Shown: in pieces, positions 11,420 through 34,092 of the stretch
Layout of the letters: each line of letters starts with the position of its first letter
Position numbering within the stretch: the stretch's first letter is position 1
Assembly: GCA_044228435.1 (NCBI GenBank)
Contig: JBGAUW010000005.1
Span: forward strand, 76,061-140,060
Direction of reading: 5' to 3'
Source of the DNA: Chitinophagales bacterium
Lineage (GTDB): Bacteria > Bacteroidota > Bacteroidia > Chitinophagales > LD1
DNA length: 64,000 bases
Translations under genes and position numbers: made by a program
Notes under the pieces: model-generated
Told to the model about the DNA's origin: nothing
What the model saw: the letters and a program-made list of their open reading frames with translations, nothing else
Databases searched by the model: none

Positions 11420-11450
11420 TCTCATCTTTAATGTAAGATGAGATTGTTTA
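11420..11450 (+). terminator. rho-independent terminator candidate after kmo
   Basis: 9-bp stem tctcatctt/aagatgaga (11420-11428 / 11435-11443), 6-nt loop, T-rich tail ttgttta. It covers the first ATG (11438) of the next ORF. Confidence 0.5.
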
Positions 11451-11458
11451 ATGCCCCT

Positions 11459-13579
11459 ATGACTGCCTTTTTTGCCAACCGCTGCCGGTTTTTTTTAATT
11501 GCCACAGCGGTGTATTTATTACTGTTACCCTTATCGGGGCAGGCGCAAACCGATGCCGAAGACAGCCGCATTTCCGATGAGTTTATTGTAATGCTTAAAC
11601 CCGGGCACAGTATTGATGCCCTGATACAGGATATTTCAAAATCGCCATTGGCGAATGGAGCTAAAGTTGAAAAATGCCTTTCGCCACGCATGGGCATTTA
11701 CCACCTAAAGCGTGCTACTACCGCTGCCAGCGAAGAGTTTTTACTGTTGCTTAAGCAAAACCCGCATATAAAACTGGCGCAGCATAACCACAAGGTTAAG
11801 CAACGCTCGCTTATACCTAACGACCCTCAGTTTGGCACCCAATGGAACATGCTTAATACAGCCCAAAGCGCTAATAGCATTGCCGGCGATGATATAGATG
11901 CCACCCAGGCCTGGGAACTAAACCACGATAATGTAGATGCGAATGGCGACACGGTGGTAGTGGCTGTAATTGACGATGTGTTTGATTTGGGCCACGAGGA
12001 CCTTAACTTTTTTACCAACTATAATGAAATAGGCGGCAATGGTATTGATGATGATGGTAATGGCTACATTGATGATGTAAATGGCTGGAATGTTTTTTCG
12101 CAAAACGGCGATGTAAATGGAGCAGGCCGCCACTCTACTCATTGCGCGGGCATAGTGGGAGCAATTGGCAATAATAATTTAGGTATTGCTGGTGTTTGCT
12201 GGGGCGCTAAAATTTTGGCAGTATCCGGCTCAGCTACTACCGAAGCACCGGTGGTAGAGGCTTACGACTATGTGCGAAACATGCGCCTGCTGTATAACAA
12301 CACGTTTGGAACAAAAGGCGCTTACGTGGTGGCTACTAACTCAAGCTTTGGTTTAAACTTCGGCAACCCGGCCAATTTTCCTATTTGGTGTGCTATGTAT
12401 GATTCGATGGGTGCCACTGGCATATTAAGTGCTGCGGCAACAACCAATACATTTACAGATGTTGACGATGTGGGCGATATGCCCACCCAATGTCCCAGCA
12501 AGTGGTTGTTAACAGTTACAAATACTAATCAAAGTGATATTAATGTCGCGGGATATGGCCTTAGCAATATTGATTTAGGCGCCCCCGGGCAGAGCATCCT
12601 TTCTACTATACCGCAAAACAATTACTTACCAATGTCGGGAACATCTATGGCAACCCCTCACGTAGCGGGTGCTATTGCGGCCATGTTTTCCGCGGCCTGC
12701 AAATCATTTATTGATAAATACCGCGAGTACCCCGATAGCTTTGCCCTGCAGGTGAAAGATTATTTGTTGCAGGGGGCAGAATGGAATTCGAGCCTTAACA
12801 ACAAAAGCACTACCGGTGGCCGGCTAAACTTATTCCGCGCAGTTTCGCTGCTTAAGCAGTTTGACTGCGACTCGTGCGGGTTTACTGCAAACCTGAATGT
12901 AACCCCCATTACTTGCAAGAATGAAGATGACGGGATGGCAGAAATAACCGTAAACAACCGAAGTACAACATCCTTTAATATTTTATGGTCGGATAGTTTA
13001 ACTACAGATACCCGCCAGCATTTAACGCCCGGGTTTTATTCGGCTTTGGTAACCGACACCGCTACCGGTTGCTCGCGCGTGGTAGCCGGCGCTTACCATA
13101 ACCCCGACAGCATTACCATTATAGCGATACTTGCCAGCGGTCCCGGCGATGGCGCCCCCGGCACTATAGTGGTTCAGGCTAAAGCCAGCAACGAAGTGCT
13201 TATGTATTCTATCGATGGCATAAACTATCAGCAGACCTCGGTATTTTCTGTAGCCGATACAGGCACTTACAATGTATATATTAAAAACACTTCGGGGTGT
13301 ATTTTAGAACGCACCATAACTGTGCGCATAACCGGGCTTAATGAATTAGATGGTTCTTCATTTCCATTGCAACTTTATCCCAATCCCGCCCAAAACTTAG
13401 TGACCCTATATTTTAGCAAACCCAAAACTTTAGTTGAAGTTTTTGACTTAACTGGCCGAAGGATTTTTGAAATTACGCCGGTAGCCGAAAAAACGGTTAT
13501 CGATACCCGGTTATGGCAAAACGGCGTGTACCTGGTAAAGGCAGCCGGAGTGGATAAGAAGCTTATAGTATTACATTAA
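11459..13579 (+). CDS. S8 family serine peptidase with SprB-like repeat and T9SS C-terminal sorting domain
   Basis: ORF 11438..13579. Start moved to the Met at 11459, giving a signal peptide (MTAFFANRCRFFLIATAVYLLLLPLSGQAQ). Subtilase triad contexts VAVIDDVFD, HSTHCAGIVGA, GTSMATPHVAG. C-terminus LYPNPAQNLVTLYF...GVYLVKA is a Por_Secre_tail-type CTD. Confidence 0.85.
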   Translation: MTAFFANRCRFFLIATAVYLLLLPLSGQAQTDAEDSRISDEFIVMLKPGHSIDALIQDISKSPLANGAKVEKCLSPRMGIYHLKRATTAASEEFLLLLKQNPHIKLAQHNHKVKQRSLIPNDPQFGTQWNMLNTAQSANSIAGDDIDATQAWELNHDNVDANGDTVVVAVIDDVFDLGHEDLNFFTNYNEIGGNGIDDDGNGYIDDVNGWNVFSQNGDVNGAGRHSTHCAGIVGAIGNNNLGIAGVCWGAKILAVSGSATTEAPVVEAYDYVRNMRLLYNNTFGTKGAYVVATNSSFGLNFGNPANFPIWCAMYDSMGATGILSAAATTNTFTDVDDVGDMPTQCPSKWLLTVTNTNQSDINVAGYGLSNIDLGAPGQSILSTIPQNNYLPMSGTSMATPHVAGAIAAMFSAACKSFIDKYREYPDSFALQVKDYLLQGAEWNSSLNNKSTTGGRLNLFRAVSLLKQFDCDSCGFTANLNVTPITCKNEDDGMAEITVNNRSTTSFNILWSDSLTTDTRQHLTPGFYSALVTDTATGCSRVVAGAYHNPDSITIIAILASGPGDGAPGTIVVQAKASNEVLMYSIDGINYQQTSVFSVADTGTYNVYIKNTSGCILERTITVRITGLNELDGSSFPLQLYPNPAQNLVTLYFSKPKTLVEVFDLTGRRIFEITPVAEKTVIDTRLWQNGVYLVKAAGVDKKLIVLH

Positions 13580-13626
13580 ATAGTTAAAAGGCAAACCCTT
13601 AAAAATTCATTTTTTACTTTGGCCCC

Positions 13627-14333: not shown

Positions 14334-15155
14334 ATGAAAAAGATATTATCAGTTTTATTGATTGCAGCTGCATTTACCACTACCGTAGTGGCGCAAAACG
14401 AAGAGATTATAATTGTAAACGGCAGCTACGAAGGAGAATATAAAGATGGAAAGATGGATGGCTTTGGTAAGGCTATGCTGAACGATGGCAGCATGTATAC
14501 CGGCCAATGGAAAAACGGCATGCGCAATGGCACCGGCCGTGCGGGGTTTAAAGATGGGTCGGCATACTACGGCGATTGGAAGAACGACAAAATGGATGGT
14601 ACCGGTACATACGAGTATATAAACGGCGATAAATACAACGGCGGTTTTTTAAACAGCGAAATGCACGGCCACGGTACTTACACTTATGCTAACGGCAACC
14701 GCTACATAGGTGAGTTTGTACACGATAAACTTACTGGCACCGGCACTATATTATATGCCAATGGCGATTTATACGAGGGCAGGGTGTTAAATGGCGTAAA
14801 GTCAGGTAAAGGGAAATATACTTACCGCAACGGTAATGTGTATGATGGTTATTTTTTAGCCGATAAAAAAGATGGCTACGGCACCATGACGTTTGCCAAC
14901 GGCGATGTATATACCGGTGACTTTAAAAATAACAACCGCACCGGTAAAGGTGTATTTACACTGGCCAAAGGCGATAAATACGAAGGCGAATTTTTAAATG
15001 GTATGATGCACGGTAAAGGCTTATACATGTGGGCCGATGGCGAAAAGTTTTCCGGCACCTGGCATAACAATCAGCGCGATGGACAGGGAACACTTATAAC
15101 CAAATATGGCGAAGAGAAAATTTTAACATACGAAAACGGAAACAAACAGGATTAA
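14334..15155 (+). CDS. secreted MORN-repeat protein
   Basis: 273-aa ORF. Signal peptide, then about ten 23-aa repeats of the Y-x-G-x-[WF]-x-x-[GDN]-x-x-x-G-x-G type (e.g. YTGQWKNGMRNGTG, YIGEFVHDKLTGTG). Confidence 0.85.
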   Translation: MKKILSVLLIAAAFTTTVVAQNEEIIIVNGSYEGEYKDGKMDGFGKAMLNDGSMYTGQWKNGMRNGTGRAGFKDGSAYYGDWKNDKMDGTGTYEYINGDKYNGGFLNSEMHGHGTYTYANGNRYIGEFVHDKLTGTGTILYANGDLYEGRVLNGVKSGKGKYTYRNGNVYDGYFLADKKDGYGTMTFANGDVYTGDFKNNNRTGKGVFTLAKGDKYEGEFLNGMMHGKGLYMWADGEKFSGTWHNNQRDGQGTLITKYGEEKILTYENGNKQD

Positions 15156-15178
15156 AAATCCGTTACATAAAATATCAG

Positions 15179-15217
15179 ATGCCATCCCGAGCAGAAAGGG
15201 ATGGCATATCTGTTTTA
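15179..15217 (+). terminator. rho-independent terminator after the MORN gene
   Basis: 10-bp stem atgccatccc/gggatggcat (15179-15188 / 15198-15207), 9-nt loop, tail atctgtttta. Confidence 0.65.
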
Positions 15218-15327
15218 GGCAGGTAGTGTTTTAACCTACCGTACAATTTTCTTTCATTTTTTTATCGGCCAAATCTTTCCGATTGTGATATTATGAATAT
15301 GTTTAGTGCCCTGTTAAACACTAAAGC

Positions 15328-15942
15328 ATGTTAGGTATTTTTTTGCGCGATATATTTACAACCGGCGATGCTGTGGTTACAACCACCATACAGCAATTTG
15401 ATGCGGATGACCTGGCGGATGCCGGCGCCGTGCTTTCAGACTACTATAAGCTGGATATAGAAAACATGCCACACCATATGCCGGCGTTTAACCAACCGGC
15501 GGCTATATGGGCAGCGCAGTATTTATACCACAGTATGCAGCTATTACTGCTGCGCCAGTTAGGCGAGGAACACATTGCAAAATTACTGACAGACTATACC
15601 GGTAAAGTATCGGAAGATGTGGTTTACTCTGTAGACCTTACCTTTAGATATTTGCCCGATTTATTAAACGCAGCCAAAGGGTTGGCGCCCGATGACCCTT
15701 TCGTGCAAAAGCTGACTCATACGGCCAACCAATGGCAATATTCATCGGTAGGTGCGCAAATAACTGCGCTTGAAACAGAAAGCGTTATTATGGAGAGTAC
15801 GGCCCTACGCACCGAGTATATTGACCGGATAATTGAAAAAAAGGATAAACACCGTTTAAAACAAACTATAACCAGGCAGGTGGTAACCGAGGCATTAGGC
15901 GTTCATTCAGAATTGATTTGGCCCGGCTTTAAAGATTTATAA
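15328..15942 (+). CDS. hypothetical protein, first gene of the MoxR-vWA operon
   Basis: 204-aa ORF, acidic, no TM segment, no motif I can name. 5-nt spacer to the next gene. Confidence 0.6.
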   Translation: MLGIFLRDIFTTGDAVVTTTIQQFDADDLADAGAVLSDYYKLDIENMPHHMPAFNQPAAIWAAQYLYHSMQLLLLRQLGEEHIAKLLTDYTGKVSEDVVYSVDLTFRYLPDLLNAAKGLAPDDPFVQKLTHTANQWQYSSVGAQITALETESVIMESTALRTEYIDRIIEKKDKHRLKQTITRQVVTEALGVHSELIWPGFKDL

Positions 15943-15947
15943 GAACT

Positions 15948-17096
15948 ATGGAAAACAAAATAGAAATGGCGGAAGCAACCGCTAAACTGAATAACGTTTT
16001 AAAGCACGTTAAATCGACTTTTGTGGGTAAGGACACCATAATAGATTTAATGGGCATTTGCCTTGTAGCACGCGAAAACATTTTTTTGCTGGGCCCTCCG
16101 GGTACTGCAAAAAGCGCCATTGTACACGCCGTTGCCGAGCGGCTTAAAGGCAAAACTTTTGAATACCTGCTTACGCGGTTTACCGAGCCTAACGAATTGT
16201 TTGGCCCCTTTGATATACGCAAGTTGCGCGAGGGCGAATTGGTAACCAATACCGAAGGAATGCTACCCGAAGCCAACCTGGTGTTTTTAGATGAGTTGCT
16301 AAACGCCAACAGCGCCATATTAAATAGCTTATTAACTGCTTTGAACGAACGGGTGTTTAGAAGAGGGCGCGAAATTAAAAAGCTGCCTACCTTAATGATA
16401 GTAGGGGCCAGCAATCACCTGCCCGAAGATGAAGCCTTACAAGCGCTGTTCGACCGTTTTTTAATACGGGTGCGCTGCGATTATGTAGATACTAAAATGC
16501 TGAATGAAGTATTAAATGCCGGTTGGGCATTAGAGCAAAAAAATACGGGCGACTACCCCGAAATTACCAATGAAGAGGTTTTATACCTGCAAAGCTGTAT
16601 TACCCGCGTAGATATGAGTGCTGTGCGCGAAAGCTATATAGACCTGATACATAAGCTACGTAATGCAGGTGTGCAGGTATCGGACCGCCGCGCGGTAAAA
16701 CTACAGCGCGTAATTGCTGCCAGCGCCCTGTTGTGTAACCGCCAGGCCGCTGTACTATCAGATATGTGGGTGCTGCGCTATATATGGGATACCGACGACC
16801 AGATAGAAATTATAGCGGGCATTATAAATGCCGCTATAACTACCGAAGATACTACGGTAAAACACCACGAAGAAGCACTGGTTAACACTTTACCCGACGC
16901 CGATGAAATTTATACCGAGGTAATGCACCTTACGCGGGAGTGGATGAAAGAAGATGTAACCCTGGCCAAGCGCGATGAGATAAAGGACCGGCTAAGATAC
17001 ATTAACGGGCGCAGCGAATGGATAAGTAATGAAACCAAACGCGAGTATGTGCGGGGGCCGATTAATGAACTGTGGCAAAAAATAATTCAGGCCTGA
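15948..17096 (+). CDS. RavA-like MoxR-family AAA+ ATPase
   Basis: 382-aa ORF. Walker A GPPGTAKS (nt 16092-16115), Walker B VFLDEL, sensor-1 GASN, DRF arginine, sensor-2 SDRR. Block similarity to E. coli RavA as I recall it. Confidence 0.85.
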   Translation: MENKIEMAEATAKLNNVLKHVKSTFVGKDTIIDLMGICLVARENIFLLGPPGTAKSAIVHAVAERLKGKTFEYLLTRFTEPNELFGPFDIRKLREGELVTNTEGMLPEANLVFLDELLNANSAILNSLLTALNERVFRRGREIKKLPTLMIVGASNHLPEDEALQALFDRFLIRVRCDYVDTKMLNEVLNAGWALEQKNTGDYPEITNEEVLYLQSCITRVDMSAVRESYIDLIHKLRNAGVQVSDRRAVKLQRVIAASALLCNRQAAVLSDMWVLRYIWDTDDQIEIIAGIINAAITTEDTTVKHHEEALVNTLPDADEIYTEVMHLTREWMKEDVTLAKRDEIKDRLRYINGRSEWISNETKREYVRGPINELWQKIIQA

Positions 17097-17809
17097 TGCG
17101 CGAAATTGTTTTAGAGCTTAGTGACGTAAATGCTTTGGCATTAATAAGAGATACACCGGGTTTGCAGGCCGCACATCATGGCGAAAGCGTGTGGGTAAAA
17201 GGCATACTCCATAGCAACGCTACCGACCCTAAGTACTGGCAGCTGCCCTTTAAAAAAATATGCAGTTTAGATTCCGATGGCTATTTATACGAATGGAACA
17301 CGCAAGTGCCTTTTTCTAAGTTTCCGGATTTAGCGTGGCAGCCCTTAACTGATATGCTTAAAGTAGCACCACCAGTAGCTGCTATAGCCGGGCAAGTATC
17401 CGCGCCAGAATCGTTCCGACTGGTACCTTCGGCTATGGTTAAAAAAAGTGAGGCGCTTATAACTTCTGTAGCCCATTTAAAACAATATGCGCAAACAGCC
17501 TACCGGTTCAGGCTGCAATGCCTGCGTGTGGCAGTAAACCCAAACGGGCAAGCCCTCTTGTTAGGCAACCCATTGCCACCTTTACCGGGGCGCGAATTTT
17601 GGTTTTATAACAATATGCTGCTACCCTGCGGCTACCAACCCGAATATGAGGTTACCGGTGCGGTATTGGCAAAACAACTTACCGCAGGGGGCACCATGCT
17701 GCCGTTGTTTGCACCCGATGGCAGTTATGAACTTGTTCCGCTTGCGCTTTTTACACCGGTTACACGCAGCAGCGTACGCCAGCTTAAATTACTGCCTGAG
17801 TTATGCTAA
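17096..17809 (+). CDS. hypothetical protein (possible bpX-type accessory domain protein)
   Basis: The ORF track starts at a GTG at 17072. The ATG at 17096 overlaps the upstream stop (TGATG), so a 237-aa product is preferred. No recognisable motif. Confidence 0.6.
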   Translation: MREIVLELSDVNALALIRDTPGLQAAHHGESVWVKGILHSNATDPKYWQLPFKKICSLDSDGYLYEWNTQVPFSKFPDLAWQPLTDMLKVAPPVAAIAGQVSAPESFRLVPSAMVKKSEALITSVAHLKQYAQTAYRFRLQCLRVAVNPNGQALLLGNPLPPLPGREFWFYNNMLLPCGYQPEYEVTGAVLAKQLTAGGTMLPLFAPDGSYELVPLALFTPVTRSSVRQLKLLPELC

Positions 17810-20259
17810 GCGATGCGGTAAGTTATTTTAAGCCACCAGCCAATTATTTTTGGCGCTGGGCCGAAAACGGAAAAGTTGCCGAAGGGCAACACATGGGGAC
17901 TATTTGCTACCGCGACGACCTGGTGCAGATATTAAGAGCACTGGCCCCTTATGGCTTGCCACCTTTAGGTAGTGTACTGCTTGTAATTGCAGCCTGCCAC
18001 GAGGGCAGCTATGGTATTGGTGCTACGCAATCGAACATTACTAAGTTTTTAGAGTCTCTGAAAATCGAATTAAAAGATATTCCGCGTGGCCTTTTAGAAG
18101 AGTTTAACCAAGTCGCGCTTAAACTAATAAATACAGTACGCAACTTGCCGGTTGATCTGAGAAGCGGCAATGCGCGTATACATTTAATTAATACGCTTTT
18201 TGAAAAAACGGCTCGCCCGGTTGTTGGCAATAAGGCGTTGGAGGTAATTGATGAATTTACGGCACATGTGTTAGATGCCGAGTTGCTGAGTAAGAATAAG
18301 CCTTACCTGGTAACAATAGACTTTATTGAAAAAGAATTTGTAGCTATTAGCTCTGCCACTTACTATTATACTGATACAGAAACCCTTGCACAAAAATTAA
18401 AAACCAGTGTTTTCGCACCACCGGAACCGGTTAAAATTGCGGTACCGGTGCCAGAAAACTTGGATGCTCCGTTAATGGTGCAATTAGAGGCTGATGTGCA
18501 AACGGCAGGCATTGCGAGGCTTACGCAAAGCATTGTAGCGGCACTAAATATCCCTATGCACTCGCGTAATGCCGGCGACCAGCCTATTGGCGGCATAAGT
18601 GATATTACTAACCGCGGCAACTTTGATAAGCTGCTTATAAGCGAGCTGGCTAACGACGACCTAACCCTTACGGCCCGGCTGGTAAATAACGAAGCGCTAT
18701 ACCTGCGGCGCGAAGTGCCACCGGTAAACATGCACCGTCAACGGAATATTTTAATTGACAGCACCATTCGCCTGTGGGGCAAGCCGCGCATTTATGGCAT
18801 TTCGGCCGCGCTGGCCTGCACATTAAACACGCAGCACCTGCAAGCTGTTAATTGCTACATCCTTACCGGTGCAGGTTTTTTATCTCAAAATTTTGCAACA
18901 AAGGCCGGTGTACTACGCGGCATGGAAACCCTAAGCGCCGACCTGCATTGTATCCCCGCTCTGCTAAAATTTATAACCGAACATGAATCCATTGAGGGTA
19001 CTGAAAACATATTGGTAACAAGCGAGGCCTCCCTGCAAAATGCGCAATACCTGGCCAACTATCAATACATACAGCAGGGGCTTAAGTTTTTAGTGAGCGT
19101 AAACCGCGATGGGCACTTAAATTTTTACGAGTTTGTAAACGGGCACCGCAAGCTGCTAAGCACTGCCCACCTGGATTTGAACGAATTATTAAAAGAAAAG
19201 CGCAACCGGGTTAAGCCACAAACCTATAATGATAAAGTGCCTGCCTTTTATCAGCAAAAGACTGCGCCGTTATTTTACCCAACAACACAGGTACGGCCAT
19301 CGCTAAACAATTTCTTTTGTATAAGAAACAAAGAGTTTTTAGGAACTACTGAAACACAAAGGCTTCTATACTGGCCAGAGCATGACAAAGGTGCTATTGA
19401 GCTTTTACCGTTCATAGAAAAAGGCAATTATAAATCAGCATTGTGCCCCCTCACCAATAAGCTTTATATTTTTGCAGGCACAGGTGATGTTAAATACCAA
19501 ATAAGCCCGGTTACACTGAAGGAGCAGGCCATATACTGCCCGGGCCCTGACGGCTCTGTTTTATATGTAGTACATTTAAGATCGCTTAAAGAACCTTTAA
19601 AATTAAGTAACATAAGGGCAGAGGTTTTAAATATAGCTACCGATTCGAATGTTTGTTTTATTGAAACAACCGAAGGTATAAAGACAGTGGTTGAAGAAAC
19701 AGAAAAAATAAGTGTTGCTAAAATTACCAATGCCAGGTTCATTGAGTTACTGTCTTATCAAAAATCCTTTACCAGGCCCGACAATACGCCTAACCGGCAT
19801 ATTAATAATGGCTACAGTGCATTACACCGTATTGAAAACATAGCCGTTACCAACTCCGGCAATATTTGTTTTGGCCTCAGAGAGCTAAAGCTATTAGAAG
19901 ACCAATCGCAACTTAAATTTAAAGAAATGAAGGTCCGTTCGATTGCTACTAAATCTATAAAGACAGAACTAAAAGATATACAACCCGGCACCCTGCTAAA
20001 GGGCACTTGCTTTAAACATACTAATGGCCACAGCATTATAATAGACTCAAACGGACTGGCGCATTTTAAAGCCGGCAATGATAGTCTGCCTGAGTTTACA
20101 ATAACCAGCGTTATTAATAAATCGGTAGCCGGATGGACCAGCGACGGAAAGATTTTTGGCTCCCCGTATTTTGTTCCGCCAGGCGATACGTGGCAAAAAA
20201 TAAGTGCGAAAGAGTTTTACATCAATTACCTTAAAAAGTTTGCAGAACAATTACGCTAG
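17803..20259 (+). CDS. vWA-like domain protein with degenerate MIDAS (MoxR partner candidate)
   Basis: 818-aa ORF whose ATG overlaps the upstream stop (ATGCTAA). aa 314-440 show a vWA-like beta1 NILIDSTIRLWG and a later ILVTSEAS at the TDG position. The C-terminal ~300 aa are beta-rich. The CDS is solid; the family call is tentative. Confidence 0.5.
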   Translation: MLSDAVSYFKPPANYFWRWAENGKVAEGQHMGTICYRDDLVQILRALAPYGLPPLGSVLLVIAACHEGSYGIGATQSNITKFLESLKIELKDIPRGLLEEFNQVALKLINTVRNLPVDLRSGNARIHLINTLFEKTARPVVGNKALEVIDEFTAHVLDAELLSKNKPYLVTIDFIEKEFVAISSATYYYTDTETLAQKLKTSVFAPPEPVKIAVPVPENLDAPLMVQLEADVQTAGIARLTQSIVAALNIPMHSRNAGDQPIGGISDITNRGNFDKLLISELANDDLTLTARLVNNEALYLRREVPPVNMHRQRNILIDSTIRLWGKPRIYGISAALACTLNTQHLQAVNCYILTGAGFLSQNFATKAGVLRGMETLSADLHCIPALLKFITEHESIEGTENILVTSEASLQNAQYLANYQYIQQGLKFLVSVNRDGHLNFYEFVNGHRKLLSTAHLDLNELLKEKRNRVKPQTYNDKVPAFYQQKTAPLFYPTTQVRPSLNNFFCIRNKEFLGTTETQRLLYWPEHDKGAIELLPFIEKGNYKSALCPLTNKLYIFAGTGDVKYQISPVTLKEQAIYCPGPDGSVLYVVHLRSLKEPLKLSNIRAEVLNIATDSNVCFIETTEGIKTVVEETEKISVAKITNARFIELLSYQKSFTRPDNTPNRHINNGYSALHRIENIAVTNSGNICFGLRELKLLEDQSQLKFKEMKVRSIATKSIKTELKDIQPGTLLKGTCFKHTNGHSIIIDSNGLAHFKAGNDSLPEFTITSVINKSVAGWTSDGKIFGSPYFVPPGDTWQKISAKEFYINYLKKFAEQLR

Positions 20260-22985
20260 TGGAACTACAGATAAAATATAACCCCAAACAAAAAGGCAAC
20301 ACCGATGCTGTATTTATTGCAGGCAGCACAGCCGCGGCATGGTTGCGCGAAATTGATAGCTGGCAGATACCTTACGGCCAGTTGCAGTGTTATGTGGTTC
20401 CCGAATCGATACGCAGTATTAAACCTGCGGGCCTTTTTGTTATAGTAAGTGCCACAGGCAACAAAGCTATGCAGCAATTACCTGCTTATACTGCTGTAAC
20501 GGGCCGGCTATATATACCGGCATCCGCTGCCTTGTATCCTGCAGTTACTAAATCTGAACTTGAAAAAATATTGCTTTGGAAGGTGCAGTTTTTCCATCCC
20601 ACTATAGGCCTGGTTGGCTTTGAGCCTGAAGACCGCATTGACTTACTTCAACTGATTCAACTACCGGTAGTATTAGAGAACAGGTGGCAAAGCGCACCGG
20701 CAGCTATCACAGTGCCGCCCTTACAGTCTATAAGGGTGCAGCGCGATGAAGTGCAGGATTTGCTTGAAAGTTTTAAAAAAGAAATTGGTGTAAAACCTAT
20801 TGAAGAAATACCCGGCAAACCGGCACCGGCCGCGCAAGCTGCAAAAATGGCGGGCAACCGCATTCTTTATTATCTGCTTGCAGCAATTATGTTCATACCA
20901 ATGGTGCTGGGTACTTTAATTGCCTTATTGGTTAACCTGCTACCAAAAAGCAATAGCCCATCAGCACCCCCCGCAAGCTATCGCTCTCCTTCGTGGTTAG
21001 AAGGTTTTTTAGGAAACATAACCGAACGCACCACTACCTGGATTAAAAAAACCATGGAGGAGCTACAAAAAGAACGCGATAGCGAAATAAACCGGTTAAT
21101 GAACCTGTTTGAAACCGACCCCGATGAGGCGCTTAAATATGCTATACCCTTATCGAGCATGTACCAGGGCCGTGGAACTACCGATGAGGGCAGTAAACTG
21201 ACCCGGCAGGATAGCTTGTTTAATATGCGGGGCTTAGGCGGTGGGCAAGTGCGCAGCGTGTGGAATATTGGCGACCGGGCAAACGATTTACGGATAAAGT
21301 ATATAAAGGCAGCTGAACAGGAGTTAAAACGAGGTAACTACAAACGTGCGGCTTATATATATACCAACCTGCTGGGCGATTATAACAGTGCCGCCAATGC
21401 ACTTATGCAGGGTAAGTTTTACCGCGAAGCGGCAGCACTCTACAAAGACCACCTGCACCGTAAACAAGCGGCTGCTGATTGCCTTGAAAAAGGAGGGCTT
21501 CTGGAAGAGGCGATAGAGCTGTATATAGAACTAAATAACTACGAAAAGGCCGGAGACCTTTACACCGTATTGGGGCAAAATACAAAAGCAGAAGCCTGCT
21601 ATGCTAAATGTGTTGAAAGCGCCCTGCAGGTAAAAAACTATTTAGAGGTAGCCCGGTTACAACATTACAAACTAAATAATACCGCCGAAGCATTTACTAC
21701 CTTAATGCTTGGCTGGGAAGAAAACATAAAGCCCGCAGAATGCCTTACACAATATTATACTCTGAAGCAGCAAACGGGCGAAACAGAAGTGGTGGCGGAT
21801 ATTGAAGCGGTTTATAAAAAGGCATCTACTTCGCAGCAAAAAAATATGCTGCTGGATGTAATGCAGCAGGTAAACAAATTGTACCCCGGTAAAACTACCG
21901 AAACAACCACCAATATAGCTTATGAAATTATAAGCGAACAGGCCAACGCGGGAAACCTTACCCGCCTGAGCGTTTTAGCAAACTACACCGAAGATGACCA
22001 ACTGGTAACAAGCGATTGCAGCCGTTACATACACCTGCATAAAAAACAAACCGCTATACAAAATGTGGTTAGCGATTTAAGGCTGAATAAAGATGTGAAA
22101 TGGTTTAAGGCCATGAACGTGCATAATTGCGTTTATTCATTCGGCATTTCGCAGGGCAGGCTTATTTTTTCGCGCACCAACTGGTATAACAATACCGACT
22201 ATTGTATTTGGAATGAACCCTTAGCCGTAGTAGATAAAATGGTAATAGCCGTAAATGCTTTACAAAAAAACAGTGTTGTTATATACTACCTGACCGGTAA
22301 CGGTTTTTACGATAAAAAGCTGCAGGCAAATAAATACTTCGATTTTTCGCTGAATCTTTATACCTGCGCCTACCTTCCGGCCGATATGCTTGCCGTGGGA
22401 GTTGATAACATAAACCGCATTGCTGCCGTTGTAAGGCACGATGACGGAGCATCGCTAAATCATTACAACACCGACAATAGCCTGGTAAAAACTACCGATT
22501 GTACCGGTGATTTTGCGCGGCTTAATTTTTATACCGCTGCCGTGCCAATGACGGCCAAAGCCGGTGGCTTTTATTTTAAACAAGATGACGTATTGTTTTT
22601 TATTTCTAACGACGGAGATGTGCGCTCCATCGATTTTGATTCTACCATCAGCTATTTAGCTATATCGCACTTACTGGGCGCACCTAAATTTATTATCAGC
22701 TGCACGGTTGGGGTTTTGTTTGTAACCGATGCCAACGGCCAGTTTGCTTTATTAGGTGATAGCAGCGAAATGGGAATAATAAGCGCTGTATTTATATCGG
22801 ATACCTGCGCGGCAGCAGCCAGTGGACATTGCCTAACCGTATATACTATAGATGGAGCGGTTAGCGTGAAGCAACAAATTGAAGTAGAAGAAACGATTGT
22901 TGCGGTGCTTACTACCAACCAACGAAACGAAATTGCTTTGCTGTTGGAAAATGGCGAAATGAAGAAGTTTGCAATTGAAGAATAG
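20259..22985 (+). CDS. single-pass membrane protein with TPR-like helical repeats and beta-propeller-like C-terminal domain
   Basis: 908-aa ORF with a GTG start overlapping the upstream TAG (TAGTG). TM helix ILYYLLAAIMFIPMVLGTLIALLVNLL (nt 20862-20942). Helical repeats at aa ~355-485. About seven strand-turn-strand repeats at aa ~610-908. Confidence 0.5.
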   Translation: MELQIKYNPKQKGNTDAVFIAGSTAAAWLREIDSWQIPYGQLQCYVVPESIRSIKPAGLFVIVSATGNKAMQQLPAYTAVTGRLYIPASAALYPAVTKSELEKILLWKVQFFHPTIGLVGFEPEDRIDLLQLIQLPVVLENRWQSAPAAITVPPLQSIRVQRDEVQDLLESFKKEIGVKPIEEIPGKPAPAAQAAKMAGNRILYYLLAAIMFIPMVLGTLIALLVNLLPKSNSPSAPPASYRSPSWLEGFLGNITERTTTWIKKTMEELQKERDSEINRLMNLFETDPDEALKYAIPLSSMYQGRGTTDEGSKLTRQDSLFNMRGLGGGQVRSVWNIGDRANDLRIKYIKAAEQELKRGNYKRAAYIYTNLLGDYNSAANALMQGKFYREAAALYKDHLHRKQAAADCLEKGGLLEEAIELYIELNNYEKAGDLYTVLGQNTKAEACYAKCVESALQVKNYLEVARLQHYKLNNTAEAFTTLMLGWEENIKPAECLTQYYTLKQQTGETEVVADIEAVYKKASTSQQKNMLLDVMQQVNKLYPGKTTETTTNIAYEIISEQANAGNLTRLSVLANYTEDDQLVTSDCSRYIHLHKKQTAIQNVVSDLRLNKDVKWFKAMNVHNCVYSFGISQGRLIFSRTNWYNNTDYCIWNEPLAVVDKMVIAVNALQKNSVVIYYLTGNGFYDKKLQANKYFDFSLNLYTCAYLPADMLAVGVDNINRIAAVVRHDDGASLNHYNTDNSLVKTTDCTGDFARLNFYTAAVPMTAKAGGFYFKQDDVLFFISNDGDVRSIDFDSTISYLAISHLLGAPKFIISCTVGVLFVTDANGQFALLGDSSEMGIISAVFISDTCAAAASGHCLTVYTIDGAVSVKQQIEVEETIVAVLTTNQRNEIALLLENGEMKKFAIEE

Positions 22986-22991
22986 CGGGTA

Positions 22992-24038
22992 TTACCGTTT
23001 AGCTATTTGCTTAGCCCACTTAGGCAATATTATTAAGCCCAACAGTATATACAAGTAGTACGAATACAGCCGCCATACCAACGCTACCGCCGCCGAAAGC
23101 CCTACCGGTGTAAACTCGCAGTTAAGCGCCATAAATGATAACTCTGCTACACCGGTTGCCCCCGGGGTAGTAGGCACGCCGGTAAATATCCAAAGCACAT
23201 ATTGGCGCGAAAGGGCCATTAAAAAACTAAAATCGGTTATTGCAAAGGCATACAACAACGATACCGCCAACAGGTAACGGCCTACCCAGTTTATCAGTGT
23301 GGCAATACTCATTTTAACCCAAAAAGCTAAGGGGCGGCCTTTGAACTCGCGGGCTGTTAGTTCTACTTCATCACCCAGTTCGGCAATACCTTTTTCGAAA
23401 CGGTTTAATAATACAACCTTAGAAAGGCGATGGAAAAACTTTTTGGCAGCATGCGGAAAAACAAACAAGGCGCTGCCTAAAAAAATACAGGCGCATAATA
23501 AAACGCCATAGCCAATCCAGGCATAACTGCCAAAGGCGCGTAAAGTTTGTAACACCGGGCTATCGGCCAGGTCGGCGCAGGCGTAAGTAAAGTTAAGCAT
23601 ACTGCTACCCAGTATTGAATACAATACCGTCCAAACCACCACAAAAGCCATGTTATCGAAAAAGGCATTCAGCATTAATACTGCTACGCTTTTGCCATAG
23701 GTAAGTCCGCTGTTTTTTAATATAAACAATACAAAAGGGGCCTCGCTTACTTTAGGTACTATACAAGCGCTAAACTCCCACATGGTAATGGTCTGAAAAG
23801 TCTTTTTCCAGGTCATGTGCTTATTAGTGCTAAGCCGCAGCTTATACATAAAAGCAGCATCGCGCACAATTACCGTTAAGGCCGCAATAAGTAACCCAAC
23901 AATCAATTTAGTGTTGATGCTAACCGCCTGTAAGGCTGCAAAATTCATTTTGGTAATAAGGTACGCCGAAGCACCTATGCCTATGCTTAAAGGTATAAGC
24001 AGTTTCCAAAGGTTTATTTTTTGCGGGGCGTCGCTCAC
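22992..24038 (-). CDS. polytopic membrane protein, lysylphosphatidylglycerol-synthase-TM / flippase-like (UPF0104-type)
   Basis: 348-aa ORF with at least 8 hydrophobic helices. Family assignment is from overall resemblance only. Confidence 0.45.
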   Translation of the reverse strand: MSDAPQKINLWKLLIPLSIGIGASAYLITKMNFAALQAVSINTKLIVGLLIAALTVIVRDAAFMYKLRLSTNKHMTWKKTFQTITMWEFSACIVPKVSEAPFVLFILKNSGLTYGKSVAVLMLNAFFDNMAFVVVWTVLYSILGSSMLNFTYACADLADSPVLQTLRAFGSYAWIGYGVLLCACIFLGSALFVFPHAAKKFFHRLSKVVLLNRFEKGIAELGDEVELTAREFKGRPLAFWVKMSIATLINWVGRYLLAVSLLYAFAITDFSFLMALSRQYVLWIFTGVPTTPGATGVAELSFMALNCEFTPVGLSAAVALVWRLYSYYLYILLGLIILPKWAKQIAKR

Positions 24039-28620: not shown

Positions 28621-29775
28621 ATGATTTTCCCTTCCTCAGTAAGTTCAAAGCTTCCTAACACAGGCACCACCATTTTTACGGTTATGAGTGCCCTGGCAAA
28701 GGAGCATAATGCCATTAACCTCTCGCAGGGGTTTCCGGATTTTAAGCCACACCCCGTATTAATAGAAGAAGTAGAAAAAGCTATGCGTGGCAGCCATAAC
28801 CAATATGCCCCCATGGCCGGCAATGTGCTTTTGCGCGAACGCATTGCCGAAAAAGCAGAGGCCCTTTACGGTGCTAAAATTGAGCCCGATACAGAAGTTA
28901 CTATAACCGCCGGTGGCACACAGGCTATTTTTACGGCCATACTATCGGTAATACGCGAAGATGACGAGGTTATTTTGTTTGCACCTGCCTATGATAGCTA
29001 CGCCCCTGCGGTAGAGTTAGCAGGAGGCAAAGCCATTTTTTACGACCTGGAATCGCCGGATTATAAAGTTGATTGGCAAAAGGTAAAGCGCCTGATAAAC
29101 CAGCGCACCAAAATGCTTATCATAAACACTCCGCACAACCCTACCGGCTCTACCCTAAAAGCCAACGATATGGCGGAATTAGAGAAGCTGATTAAGGGGA
29201 GCGATATAATGCTGATAAGCGATGAAGTTTATGAGCATATTATTTTTGATGGCATAAAGCATGAGAGCGTGTTGCGTCACCCCAGGCTGGCCGAACGCAG
29301 TTTTGTTATTGGCAGCTTTGGTAAAACCTACCACAACACTGGTTGGAAATTAGGCTACTGCATTGCCCCTAAAAATTTAACTGTCGAGTTCCGCAAGGTA
29401 CACCAGTTTAATGTGTTTAGTGTAAACTCGGTAGCGCAAGAGGCCTTTGCACAAATTTTACCCCGCAAGGAATTGTATTTGGAATTAAACGCCTTTTACC
29501 AGCAAAAGCGCGATTTTTTCCGCAGAGCTATTCAATCATCCCGCTTTAATTTACTTAACTGCGAGGGCACCTATTTTCAATTAGTATCGTACAGCCGCAT
29601 TAGCGATGAACGCGATATTGAATTTGTAAAACGCCTTACCCGCGATAATGGCGTGGCGGCTATACCGGTATCGGTTTTTTACCGCCATAACATAGATAAC
29701 AGCGTAATTAGGTTTTGCTTTGCTAAAGAAGAAGAAACCCTTAAACGGGCAGCCGAGCAGCTATCGCGCATTTAA
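28621..29775 (+). CDS. PLP-dependent aminotransferase class I/II (YbdL/methionine aminotransferase-like)
   Basis: The ORF track starts at a TTG at 28597; the ATG at 28621 is preferred. NTPHNPTG block and PLP-Lys context SFGKTYHNTGWKLGY. Confidence 0.85.
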   Translation: MIFPSSVSSKLPNTGTTIFTVMSALAKEHNAINLSQGFPDFKPHPVLIEEVEKAMRGSHNQYAPMAGNVLLRERIAEKAEALYGAKIEPDTEVTITAGGTQAIFTAILSVIREDDEVILFAPAYDSYAPAVELAGGKAIFYDLESPDYKVDWQKVKRLINQRTKMLIINTPHNPTGSTLKANDMAELEKLIKGSDIMLISDEVYEHIIFDGIKHESVLRHPRLAERSFVIGSFGKTYHNTGWKLGYCIAPKNLTVEFRKVHQFNVFSVNSVAQEAFAQILPRKELYLELNAFYQQKRDFFRRAIQSSRFNLLNCEGTYFQLVSYSRISDERDIEFVKRLTRDNGVAAIPVSVFYRHNIDNSVIRFCFAKEEETLKRAAEQLSRI

Positions 29776-31103: not shown

Positions 31104-31110
31104 GTTCTTT

Positions 31111-32091
31111 TTATCGTGGTACGTCTACCGATTTCATTAACGCATCTATCACTTCATTGGTAGTAGCACCCTCCATTTCTTTTTCGGGAGTTAAAATAAT
31201 GCGGTGTCGCATTACCGGCTTGGCCGCAAAGGTTATATCATCGGGTGTTACAAAGTTGCGGCCGCGTATAGCTGCCAATGCTTTTGATGCTGCCAATAAA
31301 GCCAGCGATGCCCTTGGCGAGGCCCCTACATATAAATCAACATTATCGCGGGTTTTAGCCGTTAAGCGGGCAATAAATTCAATTAGCTTAGGCTCTATGT
31401 ATACATGGCGCACCGCTTTTTGGTATGCCTTTAAATCGGTTACACTTAAAACCGCATTTACCGTATTCAAATCATTTACGCCACCCCGTTCCTGAAAGTC
31501 GTTTAGTATCTGAATTTCATTTTCCAGCGTAGGGTAGTTAACCTCTATTTTATAAATAAACCGGTCCAGCTGCGCTTCGGGCAAACGATAAGTGCCTTCA
31601 TGCTCAATGGGGTTTTGTGTGGCAAACACTATAAACGGTTCTTCCATTATATAGGTTTTCGAATCCAGCGAAACCTGGCGCTCTTCCATTATTTCAAACA
31701 ATGCCGCCTGCGTTTTTGCCGGTGCCCGGTTAATCTCGTCAATTAAAATAACGTTTGAAAAGATGGGCCCGCGCCTAAATTCAAACTCGCTGGCTTTAAA
31801 GTTGAAAATATTTGTACCCAAAATATCGCTGGGCATTAAGTCGGGCGTAAACTGAATGCGCGAAAAACCGGCCGATATACAGCGCGCAATAATTTTTGCA
31901 GTAAGGGTTTTTGCTACCCCCGGCACACCCTCAATAAGCACGTGCCCGTTGCTTAGTATAGCCGTAAGCAACAAGTCAATCATTTGCTCTTGCCCCACTA
32001 TTATTTTATGCACTTCGGTCTTTATTTGCGTAACGGCCTCGCGTAGCTTTTCTAATTCGGGGTTCGGGTTTTGCTGAACTAAATCTTCCAT
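31111..32091 (-). CDS. MoxR-family AAA+ ATPase (canonical MoxR-proper type)
   Basis: 326-aa ORF. Walker A GVPGVAKT, Walker B ILIDEINRA, FATQNPIEHEGTYRLPEAQLDRF block. Confidence 0.9.
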   Translation of the reverse strand: MEDLVQQNPNPELEKLREAVTQIKTEVHKIIVGQEQMIDLLLTAILSNGHVLIEGVPGVAKTLTAKIIARCISAGFSRIQFTPDLMPSDILGTNIFNFKASEFEFRRGPIFSNVILIDEINRAPAKTQAALFEIMEERQVSLDSKTYIMEEPFIVFATQNPIEHEGTYRLPEAQLDRFIYKIEVNYPTLENEIQILNDFQERGGVNDLNTVNAVLSVTDLKAYQKAVRHVYIEPKLIEFIARLTAKTRDNVDLYVGASPRASLALLAASKALAAIRGRNFVTPDDITFAAKPVMRHRIILTPEKEMEGATTNEVIDALMKSVDVPR

Positions 32092-32097
32092 CTGTTT

Positions 32098-34074: not shown

Positions 34075-34092
34075 AGCTAATGGGTTGGCTAT

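Follow-up and report, generated by a model that had tools for sequence, protein, structure and literature searches.

A MoxR-vWA-beta-propeller ternary system in a five-gene accessory cassette of an uncultured Chitinophagales bacterium

Five adjacent genes in a 64,000-nucleotide stretch of DNA (“the window”) from an uncultured Chitinophagales bacterium were found to be a complete, intact and selectively maintained MoxR-vWA-beta-propeller ternary system of Kaur et al. 2020. Such systems were described computationally as “vWA-MoxR subsystem 4” (Kaur, Burroughs, Iyer & Aravind, eLife 2020, PMC7159879); a literature search for experimental characterization of this subtype found none. The genes form a self-contained accessory cassette of ~7.8 kb that is absent from close relatives.

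All five proteins were matched by Pfam families far above the cut-offs (E from 1e-19 to 1e-102): ORF1 by bpX4 (PF19920; 2.5e-59, full length), ORF2 by bpMoxR (PF20030; 1.1e-102, plus AAA_5 and AAA_lid_8), ORF3 by bpX2 (PF19918; 5.4e-58), ORF4 by bpX0 (9.9e-25, residues 33-198) and bpX1 (5.2e-19, residues 737-817), and ORF5 by bpX3 (6.9e-45). The identity that an earlier note on this DNA had proposed, a MoxR-vWA-beta-propeller ternary system with bpX domains, was thus borne out for every protein; its description of the locus as a novel functional module was not, since the family is already catalogued and this locus is typical of it. The likeness to subsystem 4 (PMC7159879) comprises the GxxxTAKS P-loop, the Bacteroidota host, all five Pfam families, a vWA component with a helical N-terminal domain, a C-terminal propeller and a beta-rich tail, a third component with a globular N-domain, a membrane segment, TPR and a propeller, additional linked genes of unknown fold, and the absence of a conventional effector. 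No essential difference was encountered. Four refinements can be added for the Bacteroidota clade: the five-gene order is fixed; only ~38% of members carry the membrane segment; variability is greatest in the propellers and not in the N-terminal region, bpX3 being moderately conserved; and bpX1 is seemingly continuous with the propeller in the AlphaFold2 (AF2) model.

All features are on the forward (+) strand and are numbered by window position. The five ORFs, within 15328-22985, are ORF1 (15328..15942; 204 aa), ORF2 (15948..17096; 382 aa, the AAA+ ATPase), ORF3 (17096..17809; 237 aa), ORF4 (17803..20259; 818 aa, the vWA component) and ORF5 (20259..22985; 908 aa, GTG start, the third component). 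An alternative in-frame GTG start at 17072 would lengthen ORF3 to 245 aa; the 237-aa start is the one used in the gene calls of close relatives, and the 908-aa start of ORF5 is that of an independent gene call on an identical contig. The tight junctions first read from the sequence proved exact (a GAACT spacer at 15943-15947 and the overlaps TGATG at 17094-17098, ATGCTAA at 17803-17809 and TAGTG at 20257-20261), as did the 6-nt distance between the ORF5 stop and that of the convergent gene (22992). Relatives of ORF1 were absent from the PDB, PHROGs, NCBIfam and PADLOC, and relatives of ORF3 from the PDB.

The claimed upstream hairpin (15179..15217; 10-bp stem) was also present, with a folding energy of -23.1 kcal/mol (z = -4.67; none of 200 shuffles was as stable). 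It is the terminator of an upstream MORN-repeat gene and lies at the left edge of the cassette (15218..22991; 7,774 bp), which was delimited by blastn breakpoints against L084 and L085 and consists of a 110-nt leader (15218..15327) and the five genes. Four contigs from relatives whose RecQ is 96-97% identical (L084, L085, L089 and L090) have an empty site, with ~10 bp where the cassette would be. The hairpin is conserved in L084 and L085, ~10 bp from the stop of the convergent gene; in these sister genomes it is a bidirectional terminator common to both genes and abuts the convergent LPG_synthase_TM gene. In L091, the same site is occupied by the cassette at 92% nucleotide identity, and the leader is conserved there as well. 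The leader holds a TAnnTTTG-like octamer, TATGTTTA (15298-15305), 23 nt 5' of the ATG, that is tentatively regarded as a possible Bacteroidota-type -7 promoter element; a sigma-70 scan gave no enrichment over shuffles. Neither a target-site duplication nor a terminal inverted repeat of at least 9 nt was found at the cassette ends, and whether the indel was gained or lost is judged solely from two empty-site lineages and from where the terminator lies. No ORF4 homologue above 46% identity occurred outside the L091 lineage in a database that included the empty-site sisters.

Synteny was conserved across Bacteroidota: the five-gene order and the tight junctions were maintained in 67 of 69 informative loci, bpX4-MoxR-bpX2-vWA-third component being the fixed order of the clade. 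They recurred in 66 of 80 related loci (modal overlaps -4, -1 and -8; the exceptions were mostly contig-end truncations), and because of this recurrence the arrangement is more than a chance observation. The genomic neighbors were unrelated across 59 loci. A pattern-limited scan of 185,579 species genomes returned only 118 matches. In comparison with L091, dN/dS was 0.02-0.18 for all five genes (ORF1, 0.11; ORF2, 0.02; ORF3, 0.18). The conserved order, the overlapping junctions and these ratios suggest that the five genes are a functional unit. A decaying, non-functional remnant of horizontal acquisition, or an annotation artifact, would be consistent with the indel relative to sister genomes and with the lack of a terminator between ORF5 and the convergent gene. 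However, none of the five ORFs is truncated and the catalytic motifs are intact, the low dN/dS was obtained against a copy at the same site, and a search of 1.84 billion proteins gave 2,342 representative relatives of ORF4 (E≤1e-3), strong representatives of the family numbering over 1,200 and being almost all of full length; this reading is extremely improbable and close to refuted.

The motifs attributed to ORF2 were confirmed: Walker A GPPGTAKS (residues 49-56; 16092-16115), Walker B VFLDEL (112-117; 16281-16298), GASN (153-156) and SDRR (245-248), all of which align to the corresponding motifs of RavA. RavA structures are the closest solved relatives (2e-44 over residues 32-293); the NCBIfam RavA model scored 184 bits against a cut-off of 681. 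Walker A was identical in 71/71 aligned orthologues (two others were gapped there) and FLDELL was present at Walker B in 73/73. Given the homology to RavA and the invariant Walker motifs, ORF2 is probably an active ATPase. The cassette shares with E. coli RavA-ViaA the homologous AAA+ module and the placement of the ATPase gene 5' of the vWA-protein gene. It differs in that ORF3 lies between these two genes, in having three more obligate genes, in the lack of the triple-helix and LARA domains in ORF2 (382 aa compared to 498 aa in RavA), and in the additional bpX0, propeller and bpX1 modules and degenerate MIDAS of ORF4 relative to ViaA.

ORF4 (AF2 model, pLDDT 85) is laid out as a helical bpX0 domain, a conserved pre-vWA segment, a degenerate vWA-like alpha/beta domain, a beta-propeller with a helical insert, bpX1 and a C-terminal helix. 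The pre-vWA segment (residues 225-310; 18475..18732), partly disordered in the model, is ultra-conserved: it has the lowest column entropy and a mean pairwise identity of 65%, compared to 36% for the whole protein, and tracks the MoxR protein (69%). It is a candidate MoxR-docking element. The vWA-like domain (residues 311-456; 18733..19170) has the strand/helix order b-a-b-b-a-a-b-a-b in the model. Its MIDAS is degenerate; D319-x-T321-x-R323 replaces DxSxS, and T406-S407 stands where the second Asp is expected, so the mode of peptide capture may differ from that of canonical vWA domains. Conservation at these sites was 78/78 for D319, 78/78 for T/S321, 74/78 for K/R323 and 47/78 for D/E407. 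In hhalign, the only match of ORF4 to ViaA was to the ViaA vWA domain, in the MIDAS register (ILIDSTIRLWG on VCVDTSGSMGG), at an E of 0.065 compared to 0.06-0.47 for unrelated controls. Phage VWFA proteins appeared in the Foldseek viral list (E 2-3e-3). Topology and weak profile matches thus favor the vWA fold claimed for ORF4 without establishing it statistically, the ViaA E value being in the control range. The ivWA model (PF19997) of FtsH-containing MoxR-vWA ternary systems gave weak matches in 13/61 ORF4 relatives, far under the Pfam threshold (best E 0.011); for two of the matching members the coordinates were checked, and in these model positions 1-72 fall at the equivalent place, on the counterpart of the pre-vWA segment (residues ~259-328). 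Those systems resemble the present one in their divergent vWA and TAKS P-loop variant; the cassette differs in encoding neither FtsH nor a ubiquitin-like conjugation apparatus nor a NEFF1/radical-SAM effector.

The propeller region of ORF4 (residues ~500-790; 19300..20172) was delineated by DSSP of the AF2 model and by Foldseek; it has ~26 strands in roughly 6-7 blades, with a helical insert at 643-667, and bpX1 appears in the model to contribute the last blades. Foldseek against the PDB returned WD40 and other propellers (E 2e-4, probability up to 1.0, whole-chain TM ≤0.29), and DUF6923 repeats were matched in 6/61 relatives. No strong hydrophobic segment was found in ORF4 (maximum KD19 1.69, within bpX0).

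ORF5 (AF2 pLDDT 82, pTM 0.62) comprises the alpha/beta bpX3 domain, a variable linker with a hydrophobic segment, a long helix, a conserved disordered segment, a TPR solenoid and a seven-bladed beta-propeller. The disordered peptide (residues 296-337; 21144..21269; pLDDT <50 over most of it) has the highest mean pairwise identity of any ORF5 region (53%) and is a candidate handle for the vWA domain or the MoxR pore. The TPR-like solenoid (residues 338-603; 21270..22067; ~16 helices in the model) gave weak matches to Pfam TPR_GEMI5, SNAP and TPR, and the family profile weakly matched the TPR region of WDR19 (E 9e-4). The propeller (residues 614-905; 22098..22973; 27 strands) matched the seven-bladed virginiamycin B lyase in the PDB by Foldseek (E 5e-8, probability 1.0, TM by target 0.64), with TM values of 0.55-0.61 against Sec12/WD40. 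The propeller fold that had been predicted was accordingly found in ORF5, and ORF4 is propeller-like.

The TM-competent segment of the window copy, LYYLLAAIMFIPMVLGTLIALLVNL (residues 203-227; 20865..20939; KD19 maximum 2.64), is a single strong stretch of 25 aa. The earlier suggestion of an output through “the membrane protein ORF5” is weakened, because the segment is strong (KD ≥2.0) in only 50/131 family members; many orthologues lack it, which rules out membrane action as the output of the family in general. ORF5 might alternatively be a type II transmembrane sensor, with bpX3 in the cytoplasm and TPR and propeller in the periplasm, that passes an extracytoplasmic signal through bpX3 to MoxR/vWA. 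Besides the strong segment, the K+R content of TM-positive relatives (N-flank 2.58, C-flank 1.48; N>C in 34, C>N in 10) favors this N-in topology, and the variable propeller would face outward, like EsrA (bioRxiv 10.64898/2026.09.08.750141). Yet 26%-41% of the orthologues (16/61 and 29/71, overlapping samples) have KD <1.0, with amphipathic or Gly-rich segments instead, and informally no signal peptide was noticed at the N-terminus; this would place the TPR-propeller part of these proteins in the cytoplasm, and it is improbable that orthologous domains function in different compartments. The ORF4 propeller, moreover, is equally variable in a protein without a strong hydrophobic segment. The sensor arrangement is considered rather improbable.

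Both propellers are the fastest-evolving parts of the system (mean pairwise identity 23-25%; 23% for ORF5), whereas MoxR and the pre-vWA segment are highly conserved. Against L091, a hypervariable patch of ORF4 (residues 481-660; 19243..19782; blades ~1-4) shows 13-40% amino-acid identity between flanks at 87-100%; no nucleotide similarity was detectable over 19362-19791, inside a cassette otherwise 92% identical. The GC content of the patch is 0.388 vs. 0.444, and dS exceeds 2 vs. 0.2-0.4 elsewhere in the cassette. Judged from these comparisons, residues ~481-660 have been replaced by recombination. In other close pairs, patch identity was below that of the ORF4 core in 11/13, and in 12/13 close pairs the ORF5 propeller was less identical than the TPR region.

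An effector domain was sought in the five proteins with Pfam, NCBIfam and PADLOC and none was found, in keeping with the original impression and with the published subsystem 4, which lacks a conventional effector. PADLOC gave no match in the cassette, and since only ~4/150 neighboring proteins in other genomes match defense models, there is no defense-island signal. These absences, together with RavA as the closest solved relative of ORF2, ordinary metabolic and housekeeping neighbors and strong purifying selection, would also suit an accessory assembly or maturation chaperone modeled on RavA-ViaA, NorQ-NorD, CoxD-CoxE and CbbQ-CbbO, in which MoxR-vWA inserts a cofactor into, or remodels, a membrane or envelope client, with ORF5, ORF1 and ORF3 as adaptors and no conflict involved. 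We regard this as unlikely: no candidate client gene is linked in the 59 loci, the cassette is absent from sisters with the same flanking genes, a chaperone with a conserved client would not usually have fast-evolving propellers with a recombined patch, and the MIDAS used by canonical chaperone vWA domains is degenerate in ORF4.

Two further systems offer comparisons. Midasin/Rea1 with Rsa4/Ytm1 resembles the cassette in working principle only: a MoxR-clade AAA+ (weak matches, 1e-4), a MIDAS-type domain and WD40-like propeller partners; here there is no UBL domain or ribosome context, and the vWA protein itself carries the propeller. For the Esr pathway of Actinomycetota, a recent preprint gives experimental evidence that MoxR-vWA modules with beta-propeller sensors mediate threat sensing (bioRxiv 10.64898/2026.09.08.750141), which supports such a role for related modules; MoxR and vWA proteins are likewise linked to a sequence-diverse propeller sensor, but the secreted, filamentous, surface-anchored propeller, kinase/phosphatase pair, FHA outputs and Esx-secretion link of Esr are absent here.

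On balance, the cassette is considered somewhat likely to encode an ATP-driven remodeling switch with propeller specificity modules. Every step of the proposed mechanism is modeled on RavA-ViaA, CbbQ-CbbO and Midasin: ORF2 would form an active RavA-like AAA+ ring that docks on ORF4 via the co-conserved pre-vWA/vWA module. ORF4 and ORF5 would form a scaffold via their propeller and TPR regions, and the disordered peptide of ORF5 could plausibly be held by the degenerate vWA site or the ATPase pore. This complex would then be remodeled, assembled or disassembled through ATP hydrolysis, with ORF1 and ORF3 as putative obligate co-factors. Because they are fastest-evolving and exchanged by recombination, the two propellers may be specificity modules that read a variable ligand. 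The output would be non-enzymatic and, in this genome, probably at the inner membrane via the ORF5 hydrophobic segment. Given the accessory distribution and the swappable, sensor-like repeats, a role in biological conflict or threat sensing is plausible and fits better than housekeeping.

The five same-strand genes picked out in the earlier note (ORF1 to ORF5; window 15328-22985, + strand) were recovered with exactly the lengths given there (204, 382, 237, 818, and 908 aa). The junctions were likewise borne out: a GAACT spacer separates ORF1 from ORF2 (15943-15947), and the remaining genes overlap at TGATG (ORF2/ORF3, 17094-17098), ATGCTAA (ORF3/ORF4, 17803-17809), and TAGTG (ORF4/ORF5, 20257-20261). 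The hairpin reported upstream (15179-15217) folds at -23.1 kcal/mol (z = -4.67). As had been noted, 6 nt separate the end of ORF5 from a convergent gene, an LPG_synthase_TM-like one with its stop at 22992, and no terminator is present between the two gene ends (22985-22992). No tRNA genes or Rfam families were found in the window, and an exact-sequence look-up of its ORF4 returned no record.

The locus had been proposed to be a MoxR-vWA-beta-propeller ternary system, and Pfam supported this identification by placing each ORF in a family built for these systems. ORF1 matched bpX4 (PF19920; E 2.5e-59), ORF2 matched bpMoxR (PF20030; E 1.1e-102) together with AAA_5 and AAA_lid_8, and ORF3 matched bpX2 (PF19918; E 5.4e-58). 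ORF4 contained bpX0 (PF19915) at residues 33-198 (E 9.9e-25) and bpX1 (PF19917) at residues 737-817 (E 5.2e-19), both of which were present in all 61 of its relatives; ORF5 contained bpX3 (PF19919) at residues 2-171 (E 6.9e-45), plus weak TPR matches. Other database checks yielded less. PADLOC-DB v2 called no defense system, giving ORF2 only generic P-loop matches (IetA, E 5.7e-5, over 30 residues) and the other four proteins nothing. NCBIfam returned only a sub-threshold RavA match for ORF2 (184 bits against an equivalog cut-off of 681, limited to residues 4-301), and PHROGs yielded ATPase families for ORF2 only.

All of the ATPase motifs previously read in ORF2 (GPPGTAKS, VFLDEL, GASN, and SDRR) were found, and the equivalent motifs of RavA align to them. 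The P-loop, of the GxxxTAKS type, is identical in the 71 of 71 orthologues that were aligned at that position. By its sequence, ORF2 is an active-looking RavA-type AAA+ ATPase. Its PDB match to RavA is confined to the AAA+ module, and ORF2 lacks the LARA and triple-helical C-terminal domains of RavA. For ORF1, ORF3, ORF4, and ORF5, sequence-level links to solved structures were rejected as chance matches (NDUA8, IgA Fc, and a designed protein), apart from a weak WDR19 match in the TPR region of ORF5. The idea that bpX2 consists of a tandemly duplicated domain also present in bpX3, bpX4, or bpX0 was likewise dismissed, as hhalign comparisons of the family alignments (E 0.06-0.47) detected no homology.

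The architecture of the locus is that of “vWA-MoxR subsystem 4”, for which Bacteroidetes were listed among the host phyla (Kaur, Burroughs, Iyer & Aravind 2020, PMC7159879). In that description, the vWA protein has a propeller of roughly four blades between a helical N-terminal domain and a beta-rich C-terminal one, and the third protein comprises an N-terminal globular domain, a membrane segment, TPRs, and a propeller. The subsystem was also described as having a GxxxTAKS P-loop, linked extra genes of unknown fold, a divergent vWA domain possibly missing its MIDAS (metal-binding motif) aspartates, and no conventional effector. In the present family, the extra genes are bpX2 (PF19918) and bpX4 (PF19920), which are operonically linked to the core components. 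The locus is therefore a new but typical representative of a family already catalogued and not the novel functional module that had been envisaged, and it does not alter the classification of MoxR-vWA ternary systems. A role in biological conflict was proposed for the family, not as a defining trait; at this locus, the accessory indel and the hypervariable, swapped propellers favor it indirectly, and the lack of a PADLOC match and of a defense-island setting speaks against it. A literature search found no experimental paper on the beta-propeller subtype, in accord with the earlier note. Among MoxR-vWA ternary systems, this experimentally blank subtype, in which no effector can be recognized, is the most enigmatic. 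The first experimental support for threat sensing by related MoxR-vWA modules that use propeller sensors comes from a 2026 preprint describing the Esr pathway of actinobacteria (bioRxiv 10.64898/2026.09.08.750141).

A pattern-limited scan across 185,579 species genomes identified 118 relatives, and 80 of these were retrieved. Almost all came from Bacteroidota-labelled records (including Hymenobacter, Niastella, Chitinophaga, Mucilaginibacter, and Saprospiraceae), with a few MAG records labelled otherwise. Culturable carriers of homologous cassettes include Niastella koreensis/yeongjuensis and species of Chitinophaga, Hymenobacter, and Mucilaginibacter. The ORF1-to-ORF5 order on one strand was found in 66 of the 80 loci; the exceptions were 11 contig-end cuts, one locus with a divergent ORF3 (L064), and two without ORF1-3 (L019 and L057). 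Among informative loci, the five-gene order was held by 67 of 69, so the synteny that the note had proposed checking across Bacteroidota is conserved. Junctions were tight in all loci, with modal overlaps of -4, -1, and -8. ORF1 and ORF3 are two obligate small partners, strictly co-inherited with the rest. An exhaustive ORF4 profile search of 1.84 billion clusters returned 2,342 representative relatives at E≤1e-3 and 1,269 at E≤1e-30, nearly all of 780-860 aa; this search serves for family size only, the best 150 listed being filled by orthologues.

At the two loci without ORF1-3, pairs of ORF4-ORF5 homologues (L019:2952-8064 and L057:5681-10931) have no bpX4, MoxR, or bpX2 upstream; a gene for an FG-GAP/VCBS-like protein is found there in the former and TetR/TolC/HlyD-like genes in the latter. 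Either the ATPase is encoded elsewhere in these genomes, or the pair is able to act alone. In another locus (L083:10188-10559), whose ORF4 homologue is 46% identical, a 123-aa gene located 1 nt after the ORF5 homologue has as its sole match AAA_lid_3, which is the lid in classical AAA proteins of the FtsH type, and recalls the proposed kinship with FtsH ternary systems. No conserved sixth gene was found beside the cassette in 59 loci. In seven of these (L005, L006, L008, L009, and L028 among them; e.g. L009:15234-18016 and beyond), a second cluster lies near the cassette, mostly directly downstream. It consists of a SWIM zinc-finger protein, DUF5691, and an AAA_5/MoxR-like ATPase (ca. 359 aa), accompanied in five of the seven loci by a ca. 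780-aa protein. Two MoxR-type systems may be recurrently paired at such loci.

The unit is accessory. By its RecQ protein, which is 96-97% identical to that of relatives, the window belongs among uncultured Chitinophagales. Four sister contigs (L084, L085, L089, and L090) share the gene order RecQ, ScpA, LPG_synthase_TM, MORN-repeat gene, and RNase HII, with ca. 75 bp between the called LPG_synthase_TM and MORN genes. Nucleotide alignment located the breakpoints at window 15217/15218 and 22991/22992; the site thus holds a cassette of 7,774 bp (15218-22991, comprising a leader and the five genes) in the window versus 10 bp in the sisters. The hairpin at 15179-15217 is kept in the sisters, where it adjoins the stop of the convergent gene and hence serves as a shared terminator. 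Because the cassette lies between this hairpin and that stop, insertion in the window lineage is argued, and the LPG_synthase_TM-like gene has been parted from its presumed terminator. The cassette ends featured no target-site duplication or inverted repeat of at least 9 nt, no integrase, and no transposase. In a database of 5.8 billion proteins, no ORF4 homologue exceeded 46% identity except in one lineage (80%), and the sister genomes are therefore probably without the cassette altogether.

The flanking genes of 59 other loci were unrelated to each other and mostly ordinary. A PADLOC/Pfam scan of 150 immediate neighbors at these loci was used to assess a defense-island reading, which was rejected: about four of the 150 matched defense models (PycTM twice, PDC-S02 once, and mad3 once), three integrases were present, and no convincing enrichment was evident.

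Several other features of the window were recorded. A 713-aa subtilisin-like protein with a C-terminal sorting-domain-like tail is encoded at 11438-13579 (GTSMATPHVAG motif, recognized by eye). The nucleotide alignment to L084 and L085 starts only at 13607, and those sisters have an SLT-domain gene beyond RNase HII; the neighborhood has thus been rearranged on that side too. A second MoxR cluster, unrelated to the cassette, occupies 29772-35992 on the - strand. It encodes DUF58 (29772-31103), a MoxR AAA_3 protein (31111-32091), DUF4350 (32098-33357), DUF4129 (33358-34074), a 314-aa protein of no assigned family, and a SpoIIM-like protein (35012-35992); it is found in L089 and L090 and is absent at that place from L084 and L085. 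The - strand also encodes, at 48260-55483, a protein of 2,407 aa that is predicted to be a type IX secretion cargo and carries Laminin_G_3 and a Por_Secre_tail C-terminal sorting domain.

AF2 models of ORF4 and ORF5 were built on 61-sequence alignments. In the ORF4 model (pLDDT 85), the helical bpX0 domain is followed by helices (residues 224-302, of which 256-274 form a disordered loop), an alpha/beta unit with vWA-like strand/helix order (312-456), about 26 beta-strands in four-strand groups interrupted by helices at 643-667 (504-785), and a terminal helix. Its top Foldseek matches were propellers, WD40 ones among them (E 2e-4; probabilities reaching 1.0), with poor whole-chain TM-scores; propellers dominated the whole-chain list from the PDB, and the vWA domain was not exposed. 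In the viral library, phage VWFA proteins and Ro-like proteins were among the matches, all of them weak and none significant. ivWA (PF19997) weakly matched 13 of 61 ORF4 relatives (E 0.011-0.09, none significant), and in the two hitting relatives examined, the match was to the start of the model, at the expected place. The single hhalign match between ORF4 and E. coli ViaA fell on the ViaA vWA domain, with an E-value (0.065) within the range of unrelated control pairs; its register sets ILIDSTIRLWG of ORF4 opposite the MIDAS loop VCVDTSGSMGG. These three kinds of match and the AF2 topology support a vWA domain at residues 311-456, and none of the four reaches statistical significance. The ORF4 MIDAS is degenerate: D319 is invariant and position 321 is T/S in 78 of 78 sequences, position 323, at which Ser is expected, is K/R in 74 of 78, and the second acidic position (407) is D/E in 47 of 78 and Ser in the window. 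This degeneracy agrees with the family description, which allows it. ORF4 can be described as an adaptor of several domains, a vWA-like core and a propeller among them. In the loop that joins helix 2 of the vWA-like domain to helix 3 (residues 378-383; window 18934-18951), the family has the motif L-D-P-A-L-H-C-G (D378 in 53/78, H382 in 66/78, C383 in 56/78), the window having S378, H382, and C383. Lying beside the degenerate MIDAS, this conserved His-Cys pair could provide another site for a metal or a ligand.

The ORF5 model (pLDDT 82) starts with the bpX3 alpha/beta domain (residues 1-135). Next come two long helices (192-227, which is hydrophobic, and 246-286) and disorder over roughly residues 295-335, after which the chain forms a TPR-like solenoid with ca. 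16 helices (338-603) and a 27-strand propeller (614-905), which Foldseek identified as seven-bladed (E 5e-8, probability 1.0, TM by target up to 0.64). The propellers anticipated for ORF4 and ORF5 were thus recovered, and ORF5 is a TPR-propeller scaffold protein. Over residues ~391-474 (window ~21429-21680), the family profile has a weak match (E 9e-4) to the WDR19/IFT144 TPR region, and sub-threshold Pfam matches to TPR_GEMI5 and SNAP occur in the TPR region; these likenesses are probably generic solenoid similarity. The earlier view of ORF5 as a membrane protein stood for the window, in which there is one strong hydrophobic stretch (residues 203-227; hydrophobicity score KD19 2.64), and failed to extend to the family. 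A score of at least 2.0 was reached in only 50 of 131 family members, and values below 1.0 were obtained in 16 of 61 and 29 of 71 relatives (two overlapping samples), with an amphipathic helix or Gly-rich segment there instead. Members with a transmembrane segment had 2.58 K+R in the N-flank versus 1.48 in the C-flank, which weakly favors an N-in orientation. Membrane anchoring of the third component is variable or optional and not family-defining, which corrects the expectation for this protein.

The components evolve at different rates. Mean pairwise identity over 60 genomes was 69% for MoxR, 41% for both bpX4 and bpX2, 36% for ORF4, and 34% for ORF5. Within ORF4, the pre-vWA segment (225-310) was at 65% and the propeller (500-640) at 25%; within ORF5, the disordered segment (296-337) was at 53% and the propeller at 23%. 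One contig (L091) has a cassette of 92% nucleotide identity at the corresponding site, yet window 19362-19791 had no detectable nucleotide match in it. At the protein level, ORF4 residues 541-660 were 13-40% identical to this relative, versus 87-100% for residues 1-480 and 83-100% for 721-818. The GC content of the patch was 0.388, versus 0.444 in the rest of ORF4. Nei-Gojobori estimates for all genes of this pair gave dS of 0.21-0.39 and dN/dS of 0.02-0.18, whereas dS exceeded 2 over ORF4 residues 481-660. The patch is an allelic replacement by recombination, not the product of local mutation.

Diversity-generating retroelements (DGRs) were considered as an alternative source of this variation. 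Conflict sensors diversified by DGRs are marked by a reverse transcriptase and a template/variable repeat pair close to their variable domain (Doré et al. 2024, PMC10907252). No such repeat pair of at least 16 nt was found in 15100-23100, no reverse transcriptase is among the cassette genes, and the saturated dS of the patch argues for recombination rather than a DGR. In 13 other close cassette pairs, identity in the ORF4 patch was below that of the ORF4 core in 11, and that of the ORF5 propeller was below that of the TPR region in 12, sometimes abruptly. In one pair (L068/L080), the ORF5 propellers were 36% identical, versus 92% for bpX3, 82% for the TPR region, and 97% for MoxR; this is probably a second case of propeller replacement, in the third component. 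The unit as a whole is under purifying selection, with the propellers as diversification hot spots.

In the mechanism that we propose, MoxR would dock on the co-conserved pre-vWA/vWA module of ORF4, and ATP hydrolysis would remodel the ORF4-ORF5 assembly, for which the conserved disordered peptide of ORF5 may serve as a handle. The propellers would read a variable ligand, and the output would be structural and, in this genome, at the membrane. In the main rival reading, which is less probable, the unit would serve an unlinked client as an accessory assembly chaperone; the indel polymorphism and the propeller swaps speak against it. A further reading, to which we accord only a slim chance, would have this “effector-less” ternary system carry out surveillance in the cytoplasm in the manner of an immune receptor. 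The two propellers would then act as interchangeable modules for recognition, moved between lineages by homologous recombination and not by DGRs; its output would be purely structural, with MoxR-driven release or assembly of ORF5 perturbing the membrane via a conditionally inserting hydrophobic, amphipathic, or Gly-rich segment.

The locus offers several handles for function: natural isogenic-like pairs with occupied and empty sites, a five-gene unit of fixed order under purifying selection, and two conserved unstructured or linker segments at which the ATPase and the vWA domain could make contact. The propeller regions swapped between near-identical cassettes are now mapped and are likely specificity determinants. 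A conflict role, if real, would make this a receptor-like system whose output is non-enzymatic, in a phylum little explored for defense biology, and the surveillance reading, if true, would give Bacteroidota a new, non-enzymatic kind of abortive or threat response.
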